Below, piece by piece: positions 5,273 through 39,502 of a DNA stretch of 52,495 nucleotides. The notes below the pieces were generated by a model. The model made no database searches and was not told the origin of the DNA. It saw nothing but the letters and a program-made list of their open reading frames with translations. The stretch comes from a phage. The position numbers were made by a program, and so were the translations under genes. Each line of letters opens with the position of its first letter. Within the stretch, counting starts at the first letter, position 1. Location of the stretch: assembly GCA_028879995.1 (NCBI GenBank), contig GCA_028879995.1_4895.1. One strand, 5' to 3'.

Positions 5273-5773
5273 ATGGCATACACACTTGTTGTGGAAGACG
5301 GTTCAATTGTTCCGGGTGCTAACTCGTATGTTAGCACTGCAGAAGTTGATGAGTTTATCACTAACGAAGGTATTCTCATTCAACCAGGAACTGACCCGTA
5401 CTACCAAGCTGCCAAAGCAGCTATCCGACTTGATAACCAGTTTAACTGGCTAGGTCGTAAGGTCAGCAAAACACAGAGCATGGCTTGGCCCCGTACTGGC
5501 CTCGGTGCATGTAATGTTGACATCGCGGAGTCTGTAATTCCGCGAGAAGTTAAGCTGGCACAGCTTTATATGATGGCCAGTGTATTGAGCTACGACGGTG
5601 AAGAAGGTGTGCGTAGCGACCAGGCTTTGCGCCGTAAGAAAGTTGGTAACCTGGAGATTGAATACTTCGACTCCAAATCAGGCGTTACCGGTGCAACTGA
5701 CCTTTGGACGTCAGACGTCAGGGCCATGCTCAAGCACCTTGTGGGTGCATCACTGAGAGCGCGGAGAGTATAA
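5273..5773 (+). CDS. Head-tail adaptor/connector-like protein
   Basis: 166 aa, first gene after the capsid terminator/promoter, RBS GGAGG; start of a translationally coupled neck operon. Confidence 0.35.
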   Translation: MAYTLVVEDGSIVPGANSYVSTAEVDEFITNEGILIQPGTDPYYQAAKAAIRLDNQFNWLGRKVSKTQSMAWPRTGLGACNVDIAESVIPREVKLAQLYMMASVLSYDGEEGVRSDQALRRKKVGNLEIEYFDSKSGVTGATDLWTSDVRAMLKHLVGASLRARRV

Positions 5774-6261
5774 TGATTCGTATACGCCTTGAACGTCGCG
5801 ACAAACAAAAGTTCGAGTTCACCTACCGTGCCTTTAAGTCGTTTGAAGGTCAAGGCGTATCAGTAGGTGTTCATCCAGAGCACAACAGACGTATAAATCC
5901 CAGGGACCGTATAACAAACGCCGAGCTAGCAATGGTGCATGAGTACGGTCTTAACGGCCTGCCAGAACGAAGCTTTCTTCGTAGTGCTGTTGGTGGCAGG
6001 GGTAAAGGCCGACAGGCAATAAACAAAGCTTTCCGCGATAATGTACCTGCTGTTCTCAGAGGAAGCATGACTGCGCATGAGCTTAACGACAAAATAGGTC
6101 GTATGCTTGTTGACGCTGTTCACGACAGAATGGACAGTGACGTGCCACCTCCTAACACCGAGCTGACAGAAGAACGCAAACGCGGGCCAGGTACACTTAG
6201 AGAATCTATGCAGTTGTATGATTCGATAGGGTACAAAGTTGGCAGAAACTGGAGGCTATAA
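5773..6261 (+). CDS. Neck/head-completion protein
   Basis: ATG 5773 overlaps upstream stop (TAATG); tool start 5704 is an upstream extension; 162 aa basic protein. Confidence 0.35.
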   Translation: MIRIRLERRDKQKFEFTYRAFKSFEGQGVSVGVHPEHNRRINPRDRITNAELAMVHEYGLNGLPERSFLRSAVGGRGKGRQAINKAFRDNVPAVLRGSMTAHELNDKIGRMLVDAVHDRMDSDVPPPNTELTEERKRGPGTLRESMQLYDSIGYKVGRNWRL

Positions 6262-6638
6262 TGCTCAAGATAACTTCGCTAATGAAGGATAAAACCTTTG
6301 TAGCATTAACAGATGTTCTTCTCCGAAATGATTCACGCTTACCAAACGGCGACTTCGAAGACGAATATACAGCTGCAAAGTATCTGTGTAACATTCAACC
6401 TGGTGCAGCTACTAACCAGCCTAACCTGTTGACTAAAGACGATGGCGAGCATGAGTTCCCACGTATTGCGATATACTGTGGACAAGAACTAAAGCTCGGA
6501 GACTTCGTTATATACGAAGACCAGCCATACCGTGTATTCCGTATCGACCCATGGAGTCGTCATGGCCACTACTACGTTACAGCAATTCTCCATAAAGGAC
6601 CTCAGGGAGCTCGTTCAGAAGCTTTTAACATTACCTGA
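6261..6638 (+). CDS. Hypothetical virion protein
   Basis: TAATG coupling to the upstream gene; 125 aa. Confidence 0.3.
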   Translation: MLKITSLMKDKTFVALTDVLLRNDSRLPNGDFEDEYTAAKYLCNIQPGAATNQPNLLTKDDGEHEFPRIAIYCGQELKLGDFVIYEDQPYRVFRIDPWSRHGHYYVTAILHKGPQGARSEAFNIT

Positions 6639-7089
6639 CGGTGCATGCATTATTGGTGAAGAGTCTGGTACAGTTGATGGTACGCCGTATGTTTATCTGC
6701 GTCCTGGTGATGCTTATGACTTCGGACCTCCTAGAACCAGACAAGGCTCTGACGGCTTTGAGTACGTCAGCAAGCCAATGATGACAGCTGTACGTATTAC
6801 AGCTGTCGGTAAGAATGCTGCTGAGCTAATGCGTAAGCTACACATAGCGCTGGGTAGTTCACCAGCTAAGCAGTTTAACCGTTTACGGCATTATGCAATA
6901 ACCAAAATATCGAAGATTGATAATGTCGGTGGTGCTATTGGTGCAGGCTATGCTCAGAAGTCAATGCTGACTGTTGATATTAGCTATGTGCATAAAGTTA
7001 AAATTGAGCAACCGTACATCTACAAGGTTGACATCACTTGTATGGATGACAACGGTAACAAAGCGACTGGTACAGTAGAGGAACCGTAA
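6562..7089 (+). CDS. Hypothetical virion protein (possible neck/tail terminator)
   Basis: First ATG at 6562; overlaps the previous ORF by 77 nt in another frame; start uncertain. Confidence 0.3.
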   Translation: MATTTLQQFSIKDLRELVQKLLTLPDGACIIGEESGTVDGTPYVYLRPGDAYDFGPPRTRQGSDGFEYVSKPMMTAVRITAVGKNAAELMRKLHIALGSSPAKQFNRLRHYAITKISKIDNVGGAIGAGYAQKSMLTVDISYVHKVKIEQPYIYKVDITCMDDNGNKATGTVEEP

Positions 7090-7712
7090 TGGCAACTGAA
7101 GTAGACCCGGAACTGCAAGCGCAGCTGGATAAGCTAACCACTGCTGTCCAGCTCATTCATGACTTCGGTATGTCAGGCGACCCAAACATCCCTAACCCGG
7201 AAGGCGGTGTCATACGCACGCTCGAAGGCATTAACGCTGCAATCAATGAAGCTATACCAAACTTTGAAAACGCTAACGAAGCTGCTATCCAGGCGCGTGC
7301 TGCTCGTGACGCGGCTATTGCAGCCAAAGAAGCTGCAGAAACGGCAGCTGAACAGGCCACAGTAGCTTCGACGTCAGCAATCTATGAGTACGGCAACGTT
7401 GCAAGTGCAGCTACCGTAACTATACCTGCTGCATCTAAAACAATTGTCAGCCTTACTCTTAACCAGCCAAACACCGTAATTAATATCGGTGGTGTATCTG
7501 ACCCGTCTACTGTTGCGCGTCAGATTACTATTGCTATTAAGCAAGGCACTGGTTCTAACAAGGTGACTTCTTGGGATCCAAGAATAAAATGGGCCAACAA
7601 CAGGAAGCCCGTTCTGTCATTCCTTGTGGGTTACACAGATGTTGTTACGTTGCTGACCTTTGACTCAGGCGCAACTTGGATGGGTTTCTTTAACGGTGGA
7701 TGGATTAAATAA
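7089..7712 (+). CDS. Hypothetical virion protein
   Basis: 207 aa, Ala/Glu-rich helical N-terminal half; TAATG coupling on both sides. Confidence 0.3.
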   Translation: MATEVDPELQAQLDKLTTAVQLIHDFGMSGDPNIPNPEGGVIRTLEGINAAINEAIPNFENANEAAIQARAARDAAIAAKEAAETAAEQATVASTSAIYEYGNVASAATVTIPAASKTIVSLTLNQPNTVINIGGVSDPSTVARQITIAIKQGTGSNKVTSWDPRIKWANNRKPVLSFLVGYTDVVTLLTFDSGATWMGFFNGGWIK

Positions 7713-10669
7713 TGCACACGATGTTGCTTAAAGACGGATCAGACCATCGAGCTAATGTCGAAAGCCTTATCGAAGGTCACCACCATTTTCTTGAGCGCAA
7801 TACTGGCAGAACTGACGACGCTACGCGTCAGCACTATATCTTCAATCCAGAAGGAGTAGTGTCGAACAACCGCCATTTTATTGCACACACCATGATGGAG
7901 TATCAACCTAACGGTGATGCTCCGTCTGAAAGTCAGTCGCTGCTAATACTCGGCGAAATTCACGCGTACCTTGCTACTAAGGAACAGCGGTACCTTGACA
8001 AAGCAATTGAGTACTTCAATGCTTACGTCAAGTACTATTACGAGGGGGACCCAATCCCTGATACTCCTCGTCGCTGGATCGCTAACTGGCTTTGTAATGG
8101 CAAAGAGCCTGTGCTAGCCAGCTTCCCAATCAACCCTGATTCACCAACACAAGGCGGCTATAAAAATGTGCCAGTTAAATTTGTTAACGGCAAAGCACAA
8201 ATCCCTCATGGTTCTCCTTTCTGGGGCGAGTACCTGGATGTTGCTACTTGGGCCCACAGGGGACACATGGCTTGGCCTGCTATTAATGGTGGTGTCCGTG
8301 TTATTAAAAATAAAGTTGACTGGGACGATATTTACAACAATTATCGCATCACTACCATGCCAGCTGACCCGTGGAATCAGTTAGCCTGGATTGACTGGCC
8401 GAGGTATCTGGGTGAACCAAGCTACACTGTGGACTGGTCTGCTGCTGAACCTCCTGTACATCTCATCGAGTATATTGTTGCATGGACCAATAACAAGATT
8501 GGTGTTCTACCTGGCAAAAACGATGAGCTATGGGGAGGTGAGATTCTTGAGACTGGACTGCCTGATTCTCGCAGAGGTGAGATTCAACTCCGTGACCATA
8601 CTATCAACGGTGTGTACCTGCTTAACTATGCTGTTAAGCTTCCTGTTGAACACGGTGGTTATTTGCTTAAGCGAAATGAAGTATGGCACAACAGACCGGT
8701 AAACGTTCCATTGTACGGCGAGCTTCAACGCGGTAATGCTGCTGATGCTGAGTTGTGGTTCTGTGACTGCTGCTATATGCTGTGGCGAATTACTAACGAG
8801 CAAAAGTATTACAACGCTTGGCAAGCTGTCCTGTTTACACTGGAGGAGTATATTGACATCGATAAACAAGACCAGTTCTTCCGACAAGACACTCACGCGT
8901 CGTCTCCGTTTACTGATGGTATCTCTTATGATTGGTCTTATCCTGAACTGGCACAAGCTATATATTCACGTGATGAAAATGGTTATATAGTTCTGCGTCA
9001 GAACGAAAAAGCTCAATCATCTCTGGAGCAACAGGCTGTATGGTTTAAGTGTAAGCCAACAGCTAAGATACGTACAGAGGTCGGTGGCAAAGATGATGCT
9101 GGTCAGAATATCAGTGTCAAGGTGGAAATGTACATGAACCGTGAGAAGGTTGACGTCGAGCAAAACATCTATCGTTTTGTCACACAGCTACCTGCTCTTG
9201 GTGCTTCGCCTGCTAACTACGACATTCCGTTAAGCGATTTTGTCGCAGGTACTAAGCCAGACGGTTCTGAGTATATCTTAGCTGATATTCGTTCATCCAC
9301 TGATTATGGTAATGCCACTATTGCAGTGTCTTACCGTACTGACATACTCGACAACAGACGTGGCAACACTGTTCGTATGACTATACCTGATAGTTCGTCA
9401 GGTGCCATTATAGGCTTTTGGCTACTGGAATCTTCCCAGGCACCTTTAAACTCGCTGACGTATACTTCTACAGGTCCGTTGTGCATCAAAGTAACTGACG
9501 CGCAAGGCTGGAGCTGGGTACGTGATTTACCTGCCGCATCAGGCTGGGTAACTCAGCAGATTCGCACCTGGGAGTTCAGGCTGGCGTCATACCAGGAAAA
9601 CACAGGTACACCACCAGCTAGCCCACAATTCGGCGAGATTAAGCAGTTCTCGTTTGTACTGCCTGACGGCGTTAATACGTCGACAAGTATTAGCTGGTAC
9701 TGTGTGAATGATGTTCCGCCTCGCTATAACTGGCCAATTGGTTATACGATTAAGTATCGTCTTACTTTCTCGGCTGATAACCCGTACACAGCTAAGCTTG
9801 GCGACTGTACTGTGCTGGACTATGAGAATGATAACCTTGCTTACACGCCAGGTGTTATTCCGTTCTCCAACATTTATAACCCTGATTCTAAGCAGTTCGA
9901 TGGTTGGCACGGTATACCTTACCCTGGCTATCAGTATCCGTTTGTCTTTACGCATGACGATACTGCAGCAGGTACAATCAGGCTGAACAACATGGTTAAC
10001 TTTTTGTACGATTCTCAGCAATGGTACTTTAAGAAGTTTGGTCAGCTAGGTCCTGGCGCATCTGCTTTTATCTGGAACCGTTGGGATAACTTTAAATACG
10101 GTGTACCTGATACGTTTACCATGTATCACTGGGGTAATGGTAGTGCATGGTCAGGTTACCAGCCTCGTGCTTATTTCTCCGCAGCACGTGGATGGTATGA
10201 GCTAGTAAACCGTGGTAAGCCAGTTCCGAGTAAGCTTATTGCTTATGTGGATAACTGGTCAAAATGGTTGCTTGACTTCATGGAAAGGTCAGGAGGTGTG
10301 TCGCCTTCTAACTTCCCACAAGAAGGTGTTGCTCTGCCAGTCCCTTCAGACTTCACAGGTCACATGTGCGGACTATGGCTTGCTGGTGCAGCTATGTCAG
10401 CCCTTTGTGGGTCAATGGTATCAGGACTGGATAAGCTGATGGACATGCTTGTTAATGAACTGGAAGACCATTACGACATAACTGGTATTCCGGGGCATGT
10501 AATGGATGGTGGTTGGTCACCAGCGTTACGCCTTGAAACTGGTTCAGGACCTGAAAGCAACGCCATGTACTATGGTTTTTACTCTGGCGAAATATTACGA
10601 GGGTTGGGCTTATACCTGCTGTACAAAAACAAAGGGGCTAAAGCAGATATTTATGATTTAGGCCCGTAA
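7712..10669 (+). CDS. Large virion-associated protein, possible carbohydrate-active/receptor-interacting protein
   Basis: 985 aa, Trp/Tyr/Gly-rich; in the structural operon between neck genes and Ig-like proteins; function inferred from composition and position only. Confidence 0.3.
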   Translation: MHTMLLKDGSDHRANVESLIEGHHHFLERNTGRTDDATRQHYIFNPEGVVSNNRHFIAHTMMEYQPNGDAPSESQSLLILGEIHAYLATKEQRYLDKAIEYFNAYVKYYYEGDPIPDTPRRWIANWLCNGKEPVLASFPINPDSPTQGGYKNVPVKFVNGKAQIPHGSPFWGEYLDVATWAHRGHMAWPAINGGVRVIKNKVDWDDIYNNYRITTMPADPWNQLAWIDWPRYLGEPSYTVDWSAAEPPVHLIEYIVAWTNNKIGVLPGKNDELWGGEILETGLPDSRRGEIQLRDHTINGVYLLNYAVKLPVEHGGYLLKRNEVWHNRPVNVPLYGELQRGNAADAELWFCDCCYMLWRITNEQKYYNAWQAVLFTLEEYIDIDKQDQFFRQDTHASSPFTDGISYDWSYPELAQAIYSRDENGYIVLRQNEKAQSSLEQQAVWFKCKPTAKIRTEVGGKDDAGQNISVKVEMYMNREKVDVEQNIYRFVTQLPALGASPANYDIPLSDFVAGTKPDGSEYILADIRSSTDYGNATIAVSYRTDILDNRRGNTVRMTIPDSSSGAIIGFWLLESSQAPLNSLTYTSTGPLCIKVTDAQGWSWVRDLPAASGWVTQQIRTWEFRLASYQENTGTPPASPQFGEIKQFSFVLPDGVNTSTSISWYCVNDVPPRYNWPIGYTIKYRLTFSADNPYTAKLGDCTVLDYENDNLAYTPGVIPFSNIYNPDSKQFDGWHGIPYPGYQYPFVFTHDDTAAGTIRLNNMVNFLYDSQQWYFKKFGQLGPGASAFIWNRWDNFKYGVPDTFTMYHWGNGSAWSGYQPRAYFSAARGWYELVNRGKPVPSKLIAYVDNWSKWLLDFMERSGGVSPSNFPQEGVALPVPSDFTGHMCGLWLAGAAMSALCGSMVSGLDKLMDMLVNELEDHYDITGIPGHVMDGGWSPALRLETGSGPESNAMYYGFYSGEILRGLGLYLLYKNKGAKADIYDLGP

Positions 10670-31675: not shown

Positions 31676-31701
31676 TGTATCTCTCCTCTAAAAGATAACT
31701 T

Positions 31702-31730
31702 ATTATACCACATCACTCTCTAGTGGTAAA
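31702..31730 (-). promoter_or_regulatory. sigma70-like promoter (minus) TTTACC-N17-TATAAT
   Basis: Plus-strand attata at 31702-31707 and ggtaaa at 31725-31730; spacer contains CCAC...GTGG inverted repeat. Confidence 0.55.
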
Positions 31731-31749
31731 GCACTTTTTACGCTTCTGG

Positions 31750-31783
31750 TAAAAATAAAAAGGACCAGCGTTAACTGGTCCTT
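31750..31783 (-). terminator. Intrinsic terminator (minus strand) ending the transcript from the 32870 promoter
   Basis: 8-bp stem AGGACCAG/CTGGTCCT followed on the minus strand by TTTTATTTTT. Confidence 0.65.
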
Positions 31784-32353
31784 TTGGCAGGGTGGCGTAA
31801 GGAGATACAAGGCATCGTAACTATGCAACCAGGCAGCGCATATGAGATTGGCCAAAAGACTTACCATTTTAATCCCCGCGACGAGACGAAAAAGGAGGTG
31901 TCATCGAGTAGCCAATCACATATGCGTTACTTGCTGTGTGCTCTCACCGCGGAAAGCATAGAGCGTTGCACTTATCACACCGATGGAGTGGCAAAAGCAC
32001 ACAGCAAGTACAACCTTAGTTGTGGTGTCTTAGCACCTGAGTTATTGTGGATAACCTGCACCCGACGGGTGTCAAAAAGATACGCCAAAACACCACAACT
32101 AAAATTATGACCGCCGTCTACACCAGGCGCCTGGGGTCAAGGTAGCGAGCCAATACCCTTTTCAGCGTCGGAGGAATCGAACCTCACACATCACGGCTTT
32201 TACCAAATCTCGGTCAGCGAGCAGAATTGAACTGCATTCACTGGACACCCTCACTGTTTCAACACACCAGGCTTAATTGATTGTTGATAAGAAGAGAGAT
32301 GTAAGGATGTCCATTGAATGCACCTCCGTAGAGGTGCGTTCAGATCAGCGCTA

Positions 32354-32821
32354 TTATTCAGCAACTTCTTCGTTGTCGCCTTCGATCGCGCCAGCCAGTT
32401 TAGCAGCTTCAGCTTTAGCAGCTTCTGCTTTCTGGCGAGCTTTTTCAGCTTTCTCTTCAGCTTTGCGGATCTGCTCAGCAGCTTTCGCTTCGGCTTTTTC
32501 AGCTTTGATGCGAGCACGCTCTTCAGCTTTACGCTGTTTTTCAGCGGCTTTAGCAGCATCGCGTTCTGCTTTAGCGGTATCAACACGCTTAGCCAGAACT
32601 TTACCAGTGGCTTTACGCCAGTAGGTCAGCTGGGAAGAAACAGTACCACGGGACATTTCGGTAGTGGCAACAACTTCGTCCATAACGTCAGAGCTGGACT
32701 TGCCTTCTTCATGGGCTTTATCAGCCAGGTCCCATACGTAACGTGCGCCAGTACCAGCTGCCGGATACAGTACGCCGTTAACTTCTTCTTTACCAGTTAC
32801 AAAAGTCAGTTTCTCGCTCAT
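32354..32821 (-). CDS. Lys/Ala/Glu-repeat protein, possible histone-like DNA-binding protein
   Basis: ATG 32821 with RBS GAGGA; C-terminal 80 aa are AKAAEK/KAEE repeats; promoter 32870-32898 upstream. Confidence 0.4.
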   Translation of the reverse strand: MSEKLTFVTGKEEVNGVLYPAAGTGARYVWDLADKAHEEGKSSSDVMDEVVATTEMSRGTVSSQLTYWRKATGKVLAKRVDTAKAERDAAKAAEKQRKAEERARIKAEKAEAKAAEQIRKAEEKAEKARQKAEAAKAEAAKLAGAIEGDNEEVAE

Positions 32822-32869
32822 AATTTTTTCCTCGTCTACAGGGCTTAATGTTTGTTCGTTACGTGAGTT

Positions 32870-32898
32870 AATATACGTCATTTAAAAGAGTGTGTAAA
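32870..32898 (-). promoter_or_regulatory. sigma70-like promoter (minus) TTTACA-N17-TATATT
   Basis: Upstream of the Lys/Ala/Glu-repeat protein gene. Confidence 0.45.
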
Positions 32899-38596: not shown

Positions 38597-39502
38597 TTAC
38601 AGCAGTTCTGCTTTCAGTGCAGCGATACCATCCAGCAATGCTTTGATGTCCGGGTTAGATGCCGCCAGGTCTGCAACAACTGACTGACGACGACGTTCCA
38701 GCTCTTTCTCAACTTCCAGGTCGAGGCGTGCTGACGCTTCACGCAGTAAGTCTTCAACCTGCTGACGGCGCTGATACTTGTTAAAGTCAGGTACATCAAC
38801 CAGCCATTTGAGAGTTGCAGTGTTGTAGCCAGAAGTATTGGCTGCACTTACAGACACAACATCAACAAGCTTGGTACCGTTAAGCTCCGGATAGTTAACA
38901 TTGCGAACGTCAACAACCGCTTTGTCACCTACACTTACTTTGCCGATGTACTTGTAAGTGTACACACGACCATTCGGTTCAAACTTAACACCAACAAACT
39001 TCAGTTTGTCGTCTGCAATAACTTCTTCCTCAACTTTGAAGTTGATTGCAGTATTCTTGACAGGTGCAGCCGCTTTGAGCTTAGCGACCATGTACTGTTC
39101 GGAATGAGACGGACGGCACAGACGGAAGACGTCTTCATTGTAGGTCAGCCAGTTACCGGTCTCATCCACGCATGCAATCTGATTAGTGCCATCCAGCGAA
39201 CGAACGCCCGGACGATTCTTCTCAACACGATACAGCTTACCTTCTTTCAGGTTAGCGTAAGAACGGCGGGCGATACCCCAGTTGTGTTTTTCAGATTCAT
39301 ACTTAGCGAAACGGTCAACACTGAAGTTCTGCTTCAGACCACGGTCGTCGATTACCCATAAGTTATCGTAAGCCCCGCCGAAAGAACCCAGGTTGGCATA
39401 CACTTTGCCCTGCGTCAACAGGGAAGTGTTTCCCTCGTCGACACAGATAACAAAACCCAGAGCTTCGTGTGCTTTACCGCTGCGGTCAAATACTGTAGTC
39501 AT
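38597..39502 (-). CDS. Hypothetical protein
   Basis: 301 aa; first gene after minus promoter 39585-39613. Confidence 0.45.
   Translation of the reverse strand: MTTVFDRSGKAHEALGFVICVDEGNTSLLTQGKVYANLGSFGGAYDNLWVIDDRGLKQNFSVDRFAKYESEKHNWGIARRSYANLKEGKLYRVEKNRPGVRSLDGTNQIACVDETGNWLTYNEDVFRLCRPSHSEQYMVAKLKAAAPVKNTAINFKVEEEVIADDKLKFVGVKFEPNGRVYTYKYIGKVSVGDKAVVDVRNVNYPELNGTKLVDVVSVSAANTSGYNTATLKWLVDVPDFNKYQRRQQVEDLLREASARLDLEVEKELERRRQSVVADLAASNPDIKALLDGIAALKAELL

Follow-up and report, generated by a model that had tools for sequence, protein, structure and literature searches.

A putative KfrA-like DNA-binding protein, predicted to be abundant, in the replication module of Salmonella phage BP63

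In KfrA proteins, an HTH head is joined to a long helical tail rich in alanine, and these proteins bind DNA, oligomerise and form filaments on DNA (PMC7821693, PMC7783346). The BJD50_gp59 gene of Salmonella phage BP63 (Rosemountvirus), annotated "hypothetical protein," encodes a protein that resembles the KfrAs of the broad-host-range plasmids RK2 and R751 (IncP-1) and RA3 (IncU) in its small HTH head and long uninterrupted alanine-rich helix, and, like them, it is a mobile-element gene beside replication or maintenance genes. The two differ in size, with 300 to 345 aa in KfrA and 155 aa (half or less) in gp59, and in the tail, which in KfrA is a dimeric coiled coil of ~250 residues, whereas that of gp59 has ~65 residues and almost no Leu/Ile heptad core. 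The tip of RA3 KfrA is positively charged and that of gp59 is acidic, and gp59 carries an extra N-terminal beta-hairpin. In the gp59 family, the charged helix may lie on either side of the head, whereas the HTH comes first in 97% of KfrAs. Finally, gp59 lacks the KfrA-type neighbors KfrB, KfrC, KorB, and IncC and falls below the threshold of the Pfam KfrA_N profile. Our literature searches returned nothing on KfrA-like phage proteins or on a described function in Queuovirinae.

Among phage proteins, phi29 p6 and SPO1 TF1 are small "histone-like" proteins, made in great abundance, that bind to the genome of the phage and help both its replication and the switching of transcription. The C-terminal tail of p6 is acidic, and TF1 has a preference for DNA with hydroxymethyluracil. 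The gp59 gene shares with them an early or replication-gene setting, predicted high expression, and an acidic end of its product. There is, however, no sequence or fold relationship (TF1 is of the HU type and p6 has its own fold), and DNA binding by gp59 is predicted. The tails of eukaryotic histone H1 and of chlamydial Hc1 and Hc2 are, like that of gp59, of low complexity and rich in Lys and Ala, but they are strongly basic, contain proline, are poor in acidic residues, and lack order in the free state, whereas the gp59 tail is net neutral, Glu-rich, proline-free, and predicted to be a rigid helix. Similar in composition, and also predicted to form a long exposed helix, are charged single alpha-helix (SAH) domains, TolA domain II, ATP synthase subunit b, and the N-terminal region of Escherichia coli IF2, although this likeness is compositional and not homologous, and the gp59 tail has more Ala (36%) and a weak apolar stripe in comparison with typical E/K/R SAH domains. 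The head domain itself recurs, in two copies, in MuF/SPP1 gp7-like minor head proteins; these are virion proteins of 660 to 1360 aa with MuF and ADP-ribosyltransferase domains, whereas gp59 stands alone and belongs to the replication module.

The gp59 gene, its signals and its neighborhood

The window, which is the whole stretch of 52,495 nucleotides that was analyzed, contains the features listed in Table 1. An earlier note on this DNA had proposed an open reading frame at the gp59 position with its own promoter in the replication block, and we found both: the gene is real, and upstream of it lies a sigma-70-like promoter that matches the consensus at 10 of 12 positions in a consensus scan and is identical to a site annotated as a promoter in NC_031250. 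Many records give a 175-aa version of gp59 that starts at 32881. Because the ATG of that version lies inside the promoter, between the -35 and -10 hexamers, we take 32821, the start used in the earlier note, to be correct. Around the promoter, a search for operator-like repeats or palindromes gave none that was convincing, only short A/T-rich inverted repeats.

Table 1. Features at and around gp59 (positions in the window)
Feature	Position	Strand	Details
gp59 coding sequence	32354..32821	-	155 aa plus stop codon, starts MSEKLTF; matches phrog_28664 (E 6e-99)
Promoter, sigma-70-like	32870..32898	-	-35 TTTACA (32893-32898), 17-nt spacer, -10 TATATT (32870-32875)
Shine-Dalgarno sequence GAGGAA	32828..32833	-	6 nt 5' of the ATG, read from the sequence
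Head, residues 1-78	32588..32821	-	winged-helix-like HTH
Ala/Lys/Glu/Arg-rich helix, residues 79-143	32393..32587	-	from composition, charge, and structure model
Acidic C-terminal tip, residues 144-155	32357..32392	-	GAIEGDNEEVAE; net charge -5, low pLDDT
GC-rich hairpin GCACCUC-UACG-GAGGUGC	32320..32337	-	UACG tetraloop; 16 nt past the gp59 stop
Structured stretch	31786..32353	-	untranslated, ~570 nt; same transcription unit as gp59, outside the protein
First intrinsic-terminator-like hairpin 3' of gp59	31758..31785	-	12-bp stem, then U-run; conserved in relatives

The gene belongs to the replication block and is located on the strand opposite to the structural genes. Its position is conserved in all of the loci compared (20 of 20), where it lies directly downstream of, and on the same strand as, the genes for a Cas4-like exonuclease and an SF2 helicase; the neighbors across these loci also include the MazG, ThyA, and PolA genes. 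The BP63 helicase is gp61 and the exonuclease gp62. In relatives, the gene also has its own terminator, and its transcription unit is therefore monocistronic there.

Codon adaptation of gp59 is the highest among 70 ORFs, with a CAI of 0.77 (0.74 for the head alone), as calculated with weights after the Sharp-Li E. coli table and with the value of the tail inflated by the codon choice for K, E, and A. For comparison, the CAI is 0.69 for the major head protein and 0.54 for SSB, and the median is 0.31. In phage 9g and at three other loci, the homolog likewise comes out on top of its local gene set. Because its codon adaptation exceeds that of every other gene in the genome, we suggest that gp59 is abundant, and it is probably very highly expressed.

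The earlier note had also remarked that coating of the DNA would be of particular interest if that DNA is modified. Some outside support for modification exists: DNA of the sister-genus phage S144 resists restriction at all tested GC-containing sites (PMC7432712), and distant gp59 homologs adjoin 7-deazaguanine synthesis genes. Nothing ties gp59 itself to modification, however.

The head and the tail of gp59

In the structure model, the head of gp59 is a winged-helix/HTH fold, a three-helix bundle with beta-strands (a beta-hairpin at residues 11-20 and helices at 25-39, 43-53, and 58-72) that can be superposed on known wHTH domains. Conserved positions of the head are G16, P20, R27, W30, D31, D34, Q64, W68, R69, K70, and G73. 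An HHalign comparison of 35 diverse head domains with six KfrA N-termini aligned 48 columns that cover all three helices (88.4% probability, E 2.8e-6). The score of 33.3 was not reached by any of 200 column-shuffled controls (9.5 +/- 1.9, maximum 14.5), and a broader run gave 53% probability (E 1.4e-4). These profile comparisons, in which the KfrA side is represented by six sequences, are suggestive of a remote homology between the gp59 head and the KfrA HTH domain. Pfam KfrA_N (PF11740) matched neither gp59 nor its head, even at E values of up to 1 to 10, and gave weak matches in one or two distant family members (E 0.014 to 8.6e-5).

Foldseek with the gp59 model found no PDB match with E < 0.1 and, in BFVD, only uncharacterized members of the same family; PDB sequence and profile searches retrieved no relatives; and no useful hit rose above threshold when gp59 and its relatives were scanned with Pfam, NCBIfam, and PADLOC. 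The profile PF18780 (HNH_repeat, a homing-endonuclease-associated repeat) matched two of 144 family representatives, one of which (P0061) barely passes with 27.1 bits against a cutoff of 26, and gp59 itself has no Pfam match to it. Grouped at 50% identity, sequences of the head-domain family fall into at least 1,900 clusters, for which there is no Pfam or NCBIfam entry, solved structure, or functional PHROG label. Charged helical flanks (at least 50% K+A+E) occur in 118 of 180 family representatives, with a median net charge of 0, and the head domain is also seen as tandem arrays.

The long Lys/Ala/Glu tail that the earlier note had described is real and has the strongest such bias in the window: the best 64-residue stretch of gp59 is 86% K/A/E/R, more than in any other ORF (24% background, binomial P ~5e-24). 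Its description as an 80-residue run of repeats held less well, since the region is a biased helix of ~65 residues to which an acidic tip of 12 residues is attached. A true tandem repeat was rejected, because the bias is one of composition and the internal duplication is weak (TRF reports a 15-nt unit in 2.2 copies, and degenerate 39-nt units are 62 to 72% identical). Across the gp59 relatives, composition of the tail is conserved while its sequence is not (38% identity, versus 66% in the head).

The predicted structure models the tail as one unbroken alpha-helix (residues 82-149). In its core (residues 80-143), 33 of 64 residues are charged (52%) and 23 are Ala (36%). Residues of opposite charge are paired 13 times at i+3 and 9 times at i+4, and there is a weak stripe of Ala. 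Since the tail has just three large hydrophobic residues, a stable coiled coil is doubtful; a dimer through the tail is possible in view of a weak apolar periodicity of 3.5 to 3.6 residues, which was matched by 31 of 2,000 shuffles.

The charge of the tail does not fit a comparison with the basic tails of H1-like histones, which had been the ground for the proposal in the earlier note that gp59 could coat or compact DNA. Residues 79-155 include 25 A, 16 E, 13 K, and 7 R and no proline, and 20 K+R stand against 19 D+E, so that the tail is net neutral (pI 8.2, with 6.7 for the whole protein). Among 26 close relatives, the net charge of the tail lies between -9 and +3, and every one is acidic over its 12 terminal residues (net -1 to -8). 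No Pfam or NCBIfam match of gp59 to HU, IHF, H-NS, Hc1, HC2, or linker histone was obtained. Matches to ATP-synt_B (E 0.014, below the Pfam cutoff), CAF1A_acidic, RR_TM4-6, and adenylate kinase PRK13808 were dismissed as composition artifacts. The abundance of Lys and Ala and a weak, composition-driven HC2 match of one distant family member (E 3e-4) are what remains in favor of a basic, nucleoid-type tail that compacts or coats DNA electrostatically, and we consider that explanation largely refuted by composition and most improbable. Net charge is worth checking before a Lys/Ala/Glu-rich tail is labeled histone-like.

Candidate roles of gp59

Although the reasoning from the tail fails, the idea of DNA binding may partly hold through the wHTH head, with the likeness to KfrA, the promoter, and the codon adaptation in its favor. 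Given the neutral tail and the HTH-like head, any DNA binding would come from the head and not from the tail. We propose, with a probability of roughly 0.45, that gp59, as part of the phage replication module, is KfrA-like and abundant and binds DNA in an architectural or regulatory capacity. The head would bind double-stranded DNA via helix 3 (GTVSSQLTYWRK), and the long helix would be, as in KfrA, either a rigid spacer or a stalk for dimerization or oligomerization, making no DNA contact itself. The protein would accumulate to high levels and act on replicating phage DNA, and its acidic tip may touch a replisome partner or fold back onto the head.

The HTH-like head and its remote similarity to KfrA would also suit a low-copy, sequence-specific transcription factor, which could be an autoregulator or an activator of middle or late genes and whose operator would lie close to its own promoter or to others. 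KfrA proteins, which bind at their own promoter, autoregulate their transcription (PMC7821693); the phage, which encodes no RNA polymerase, has to redirect that of the host (S144 paper); and several phage records call gp59 homologs "transcriptional activator." Those labels, however, have been transferred without support (no function is assigned to the matching PHROG families, and there is no NCBIfam match above the cutoff), the promoter is not surrounded by a repeated or palindromic operator, and the top codon adaptation, the strong Shine-Dalgarno sequence, and the monocistronic unit point instead to a stoichiometric, abundant protein, so we regard such a factor as rather unlikely. We are similarly doubtful that gp59 is a protein-binding adaptor, with the head docked on RNA polymerase, sigma, DnaB, SF2 helicase, or polymerase and the helix and tip acting as a spacer and a second contact. 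With a pI of 5.75 and a net charge of -1, the head is slightly on the acidic side, which is unusual for a nonspecific DNA binder, and winged helices, which can bind protein or RNA, appear in its hit lists: SelB and, as binders of proteins or peptides, the RRE domain of TbiB1, the N-terminal activation domain of T4 MotA, cullin WHB, and RPA32C. The gene keeps its place beside the helicase gene without exception, the acidic C-terminal tip is conserved, and SSB-type proteins bind their partners through acidic C-terminal tips. Against an adaptor stand the identity of the closest sequence-level relative, which is a DNA-binding head (KfrA_N), and helix 3, whose polar and basic residues (S, S, Q, T, Y, R, K) are of the kind that make up a recognition helix. 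The tandem arrays and the fusion into DNA-associated minor head proteins also suit a nucleic-acid module better.

Virion proteomics, which the earlier note had named as a check, gives a divided answer in published data. The 90%-identical ortholog of gp59 in phage fHy-Eco03, gp60, was detected by LC-MS/MS and is among the 48 of 81 proteins called virion-associated in purified particles (PMC8145870). Detection of this ortholog indicates that gp59 is expressed. The list is too inclusive to establish a place in the virion, as it contains helicase, exonuclease, SSB, thymidylate synthase, polymerase, and primase, which makes carry-over into the particles likely; in the stricter virion proteome of S144 (32 proteins), the gp59 ortholog is absent. 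A place inside the virion or in its structure, with packaging alongside the DNA, would also agree with the occurrence of the head domain in MuF-type minor head proteins, which travel with packaged DNA, and with codon adaptation no lower than that of the major head protein. The location of the gene in the replication block, opposite to the structural genes, argues against it, and we consider this role improbable. Even less probable is that gp59 binds RNA and acts on structured or tRNA-like elements of its own transcript: gp59 is cotranscribed with the structured stretch downstream (Table 1), and one relative (L029) has a real tRNA-Met in the equivalent slot, but most relatives (L002, L004, and 9g-like phages) keep the protein and have only a terminator downstream. 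The structured RNA is therefore not a conserved partner of gp59.

If gp59 is an abundant DNA binder, as we favor, it would be a conserved and wholly uncharacterized part of a replication module common to many phage lineages, including the 7-deazaguanine-modified Queuovirinae as well as Rosemountvirus and Loughboroughvirus, phages of which are used for the biocontrol of Salmonella and E. coli, and the head-plus-stalk design of KfrA would be extended from plasmid maintenance to phage replication. Because the clusters of its family are without annotation, one experiment on gp59, which is small and easy to express, would annotate thousands of genes. A bolder version, which we hold to be unlikely, is that gp59 and its relatives form a large unrecognized family of abundant phage "chromatin" proteins, in which a KfrA-derived head and stalk polymerize on replicating, possibly modified, DNA, organize or protect it, and recruit the adjacent helicase and exonuclease. 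Such proteins would be functional counterparts of phi29 p6 and SPO1 TF1 in the widespread lineages that carry the Sak4, SSB, Cas4-exonuclease, SF2-helicase, and PolA module, the 7-deazaguanine Queuovirinae among them.

Structured RNA downstream of gp59

The untranslated stretch between gp59 and the terminator-like hairpin has the appearance of a conserved and highly structured RNA with tRNA-like hairpins. It contains long inverted repeats, with compensatory changes and conserved G-U pairs. ARAGORN and Rfam identified no tRNA or known RNA family in this region of BP63 and seven relatives. As a replication origin, the region was rejected, since the GC skew does not switch here and turns near 26 kb. 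In the GC-rich hairpin that follows the gp59 stop codon, the stem does not vary across eight related phages, and the loop reads either UACG or UUCG. The minimum free energy of the sense strand of the whole stretch is -237 kcal/mol (z = -8.8), versus -201 kcal/mol (z = -6.0) for the opposite strand. Because folding is 36 kcal/mol more favorable for the sense strand than for its complement, we favor the interpretation that the stretch acts as RNA.

Gene start and tail of gp59

The window matches Salmonella phage BP63 (Rosemountvirus, NC_031250/KM366099) at 100% identity, and the gene under study is annotated there as BJD50_gp59, a "hypothetical protein" of 155 amino acids (gp59). The gene belongs to the leftward block for replication and nucleotide metabolism in BP63, where it is preceded by genes for a Sak4-like annealing protein, SSB, a dCMP deaminase, a Cas4-domain exonuclease, a DEAD/DEAH (SF2) helicase and gp60, and followed by those for gp58, gp57, a MazG-like pyrophosphohydrolase, thymidylate synthase, a polymerase accessory subunit and DNA polymerase A. 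A sigma-70-like promoter and a strong Shine-Dalgarno sequence precede its ATG, which bears out the gene coordinates of the earlier note. A start 20 codons upstream is used in many database records, the cluster representative among them. That upstream ATG sits inside gp59's own promoter, flanked by the -35 and -10 hexamers, and more distant homologs begin at the position of MSEK. The 155-residue start is therefore correct, and the 175-residue form has very likely been mis-annotated.

In residues 79-155, Ala occurs 25 times, Glu 16, Lys 13 and Arg 7, and Pro is absent. The top 64-residue window of gp59 is 86% K/A/E/R, the most extreme bias among all ORFs in the window (background 24%, binomial P ~5e-24), with the head scaffolding protein as the runner-up (66%). 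The Lys/Ala/Glu bias of the earlier note therefore stands, but its 80-residue run of repeats does not: the biased helix covers about 65 residues (79-143) and gives way to a 12-residue acidic tip (GAIEGDNEEVAE). Repeats at the DNA level comprise one 15-nt unit in 2.2 copies and degenerate 39-nt units of 62-72% identity, and the tail is a compositional bias with some internal duplication rather than a clean repeat array. Its charges are nearly balanced (K+R = 20, D+E = 19), with a pI of 8.2 for the tail and 6.7 for the whole protein. Across 26 close family members, tail K/A/E/R content ranges from 58 to 86% and net charge from -9 to +3; all 26 end in 12 residues of net acidic charge (-1 to -8). 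AlphaFold predicts a single continuous helix at residues 82-149 (pLDDT ~90). Apolar residues, mostly Ala, recur with a weak periodicity of 3.5-3.6 residues that was matched by 31 of 2000 shuffles, and only three large hydrophobic residues are present. The tail sequence fits either a charged single alpha-helix or a marginal dimer of the alanine-zipper type.

Coordinates of features in the window and in related phage loci (L-numbers)
Feature	Coordinates	Strand	Remark
gp59 gene	32354-32821	minus	155 aa
Sigma-70-like promoter	32898..32870	minus	TTTACA-17-TATATT; precedes the 32821 ATG
Shine-Dalgarno sequence	5' of the 32821 ATG	minus	GAGGAA
Upstream extension	32822-32881	minus	175-aa version; ATG at 32881
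Structured RNA region	31786-32353	minus	gp59 stop to first terminator-like hairpin
T-arm-like hairpin	32221-32235	minus	GCAG-UUCAAUU-CUGC; T-loop UUCAAUU
T-arm-like hairpin	32171-32185	minus	GAGG-UUCGAUU-CCUC; T-loop UUCGAUU
First terminator-like hairpin	31785..31758
Annotated gp58	31703-31867	minus	54 aa
Next promoter	31702-31730
BP63 gp68 (phrog_33391)	38597-39502	minus	301 aa
L029, tRNA-Met(CAT) and T-arm-like element	7614-7689 and ~7040-7085		slot between gp59 homolog and MazG
L005, gp59-like and 7-deazaguanine genes	6870-10416
L006, gp59-like and 7-deazaguanine genes	6572-9186
L007, gp59-like and 7-deazaguanine genes	5348-10204

The head-domain family and its probable relation to KfrA

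The head (residues 1-78) is the conserved part of the protein, with a mean pairwise identity of 66% compared with 38% for the tail, and G16, P20, R27, W30, D31, D34, Q64, W68, R69, K70 and G73 are invariant or nearly so. Relatives of gp59 fall into 42 clusters in a word-indexed search, and a head-profile search of 1.84 billion representatives retrieved 1,913 proteins at E <=1e-3 (611 at E <=1e-10). With a distant family member as the query, tblastn matched 135 phage genomes, including Enterobacteria phage 9g and other Queuovirinae, Pseudomonas PaMx25-like and Iggy-like phages, Pantoea Vid5 and many Vibrio phages. Scans of gp59 and its relatives found no coverage of the head by Pfam or NCBIfam, and all PHROGs that hold the domain (28664, 18634, 11298, 7864, 21588, 22313 and 17772) are of "unknown function". 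No solved structure was detectable by sequence-profile search, and the relatives in BFVD are uncharacterised proteins only. A few GenBank records label homologs "transcriptional activator (FtrA domain)", for which we found no basis.

In some family members the domain is present in tandem, as two or three copies, and it is found twice within large metagenomic MuF/SPP1-gp7-like minor head ("DNA pilot") proteins (P0050, P0099, P0151, P0061 and P0064), in some of which ADP-ribosyltransferase toxin domains accompany it. One copy in P0061 lies barely above the Pfam HNH_repeat (PF18780) threshold, a hint that PF18780, KfrA_N and the gp59 head may form one HTH superfamily. A domain flank of at least 50% K+A+E, with a median net charge of 0, is present in 118 of 180 representatives and may lie on either side of the head (N-terminal in the 274-residue gene 9 of phage 9g). 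The association with a charged helix is family-wide.

Given the weak Pfam hints in the gp59 family (KfrA_N, MarR_2 and HTH_5), we compared the head directly with KfrA. A profile of 35 diverse head domains was aligned to the N-termini of six real KfrA or KfrA-like plasmid genes, including IncP-1 pB1 kfrA and Xanthomonas KfrA. HHalign gave a probability of 88.4% (E 2.8e-6) over 48 columns spanning helices 1-3, in which VW(D/E)xAD corresponds to (I/V)FxxAD and TQYxxWRK to (S/T)TIxxxLxxW(R/K); with a noisier alignment of 202 sequences the probability had been 53% (E 1.4e-4). The real KfrA alignment scored 33.3, against 9.5 +/- 1.9 (maximum 14.5) for 200 column-shuffled controls and 12.7 for the reversed KfrA alignment. 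In KfrA, a globular HTH head at the N-terminus is followed by a long, unusually alanine-rich tail that forms an alpha-helical coiled coil; the protein binds DNA, regulates itself, oligomerises and forms filaments on operator DNA (PMC7821693, PMC7783346). gp59 has the same head-plus-tail design in miniature. However, gp59 has no Pfam-level match, its tail measures ~65 residues rather than ~250, its tip is acidic where that of KfrA is basic, and its gene belongs to a phage replication module and not to a plasmid partition operon. We therefore do not place gp59 in the KfrA family, although it probably works like KfrA and is probably a distant relative.

Genomic setting, predicted abundance and mechanism

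In 20 of 20 loci, which include 45-kb, 52-kb and 66-kb relatives, 9g-like phages and one variant with three tandem domains, the gp59 gene shares its strand with the Cas4-like exonuclease and SF2 helicase genes and lies downstream of them, as a rule no more than a few hundred bases away. Nucleotide-metabolism genes follow on its 3' side (MazG and ThyA in the BP63 group; QueD, FolE, QueC and QueE in 7-deazaguanine phages), with the PolA gene farther downstream. The homologs in two loci (L002 and L004) have their own promoter and terminator and are therefore monocistronic.

Calculated with Sharp-Li E. coli weights, a table whose values here call for some caution, the CAI of gp59 is 0.77 (0.74 for the head alone), the highest among the 70 ORFs with 100 or more amino acids (median 0.31); the major head protein reaches 0.69, SSB 0.54 and the tail sheath 0.48. 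The homolog in E. coli phage 9g (CAI 0.60) ranks first among its neighbours (maximum 0.35), as do the homologs in three of five other loci. Together with the strong Shine-Dalgarno sequence, these values argue for a very abundant, stoichiometric DNA-associated factor more than for a low-copy regulator. BP63 gp68, with a CAI of 0.54, the third or fourth highest and near that of SSB, is another candidate abundant early protein.

The fold, family, genomic context and codon bias of gp59 best support a head-plus-stalk protein that, we infer, binds DNA. Its KfrA-like HTH head would contact DNA, the neutral Ala/Lys/Glu helix would serve dimerisation, oligomerisation or spacing, and the acidic tip might contact a partner or the head, with the protein presumably made in large amounts within the replication module. 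A specific transcription factor is an unlikely alternative, as the top CAI and strong Shine-Dalgarno sequence point to more protein than a low-copy regulator would call for, and a protein-binding adaptor is likewise doubtful.

A virion-internal role is quite improbable. The 90%-identical ortholog in phage fHy-Eco03 (gp60, 158 aa), for which HHpred gave no significant match in that study, turned up in LC-MS/MS of purified particles and carries the annotation "putative structural protein", a label that this experiment gave to 48 of 81 proteins, among them helicase, exonuclease, SSB, ThyA, polymerase and primase (PMC8145870); the detection shows expression and not virion membership. The ortholog is not listed in the stricter virion proteome of the sister-genus phage S144. 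RNA binding, for which the structured RNA downstream of gp59 would be a partner, is very improbable: most phages with a gp59-like protein do not have this RNA, so it is probably not an obligatory partner. Least credible is the basic-tail, histone-like mechanism that the earlier note had proposed. Histone tails of the H1 and Hc1/Hc2 types act through strong basicity, whereas the gp59 tail is balanced in charge and its end is acidic in all 26 relatives; Pfam and NCBIfam scans of gp59 gave no match to histone-like, HU, H-NS or Hc families.

As general background, and no evidence on gp59 itself, S144 DNA resists every tested restriction enzyme with G/C in its site (PMC7432712), which suggests DNA modification in the S144/BP63 group. 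A gp59-like gene lies directly upstream of 7-deazaguanine DNA-modification genes in three distant loci (L005, L006 and L007). The genes beside distant homologs encode QueD/PTPS, FolE, QueC, QueE and, in phage 9g, a tRNA-ribosyltransferase-like DpdA; MazG, ThyA and dCMP deaminase occupy this slot in the BP63 group.

A putative structured RNA region downstream of gp59

The ~570 nt that follow the gp59 stop hold no credible ORF. The sense strand folds with an MFE of -237 kcal/mol, compared with -178 +/- 7 for shuffles (z = -8.8), and the antisense strand reaches only -201 kcal/mol (z = -6.0). The region forms four or five long hairpins, contains several inverted repeats of 15-23 nt, and opens, just after the stop, with an invariant GC-rich hairpin with a UACG/UUCG tetraloop. 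A 13-bp stem is kept in eight of eight related phages, with two fully compensatory positions, invariant U-G pairs and a freely variable interior. Over the first ~365 nt, five genomes share 116 consensus pairs, six of them with compensatory changes; such changes and conserved G-U pairs extend across Rosemountvirus, Loughboroughvirus and fHy-Eco03. The region is a candidate for a hitherto undescribed structured phage RNA, or 3' UTR element, that would be co-transcribed with gp59. Most GenBank records leave the region unannotated.

Two hairpins recall the T-arm of a tRNA and have 7-nt T-loops. No tRNA (ARAGORN) or Rfam family was found in this region of BP63 and seven relatives. In the more distant relative L029, a bona fide tRNA-Met(CAT) occupies the corresponding slot, together with another T-arm-like element that ends in ACCA. 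The BP63 RNA may be tRNA-derived or tRNA-mimicking.

Annotated gp58 lies within the structured region, overlapping the terminator hairpin and the next promoter. Given that related genomes annotate different tiny ORFs here, or none, gp58 is probably not a gene. When 31676-32353 is aligned with three related loci (L017, L018 and L008), module order differs between phages: the T-arm-like module follows the second long hairpin in KE25, KM and fHy-Eco03 and precedes it in BP63 and ZCSE2, which suggests that the RNA elements are modularly rearranged.
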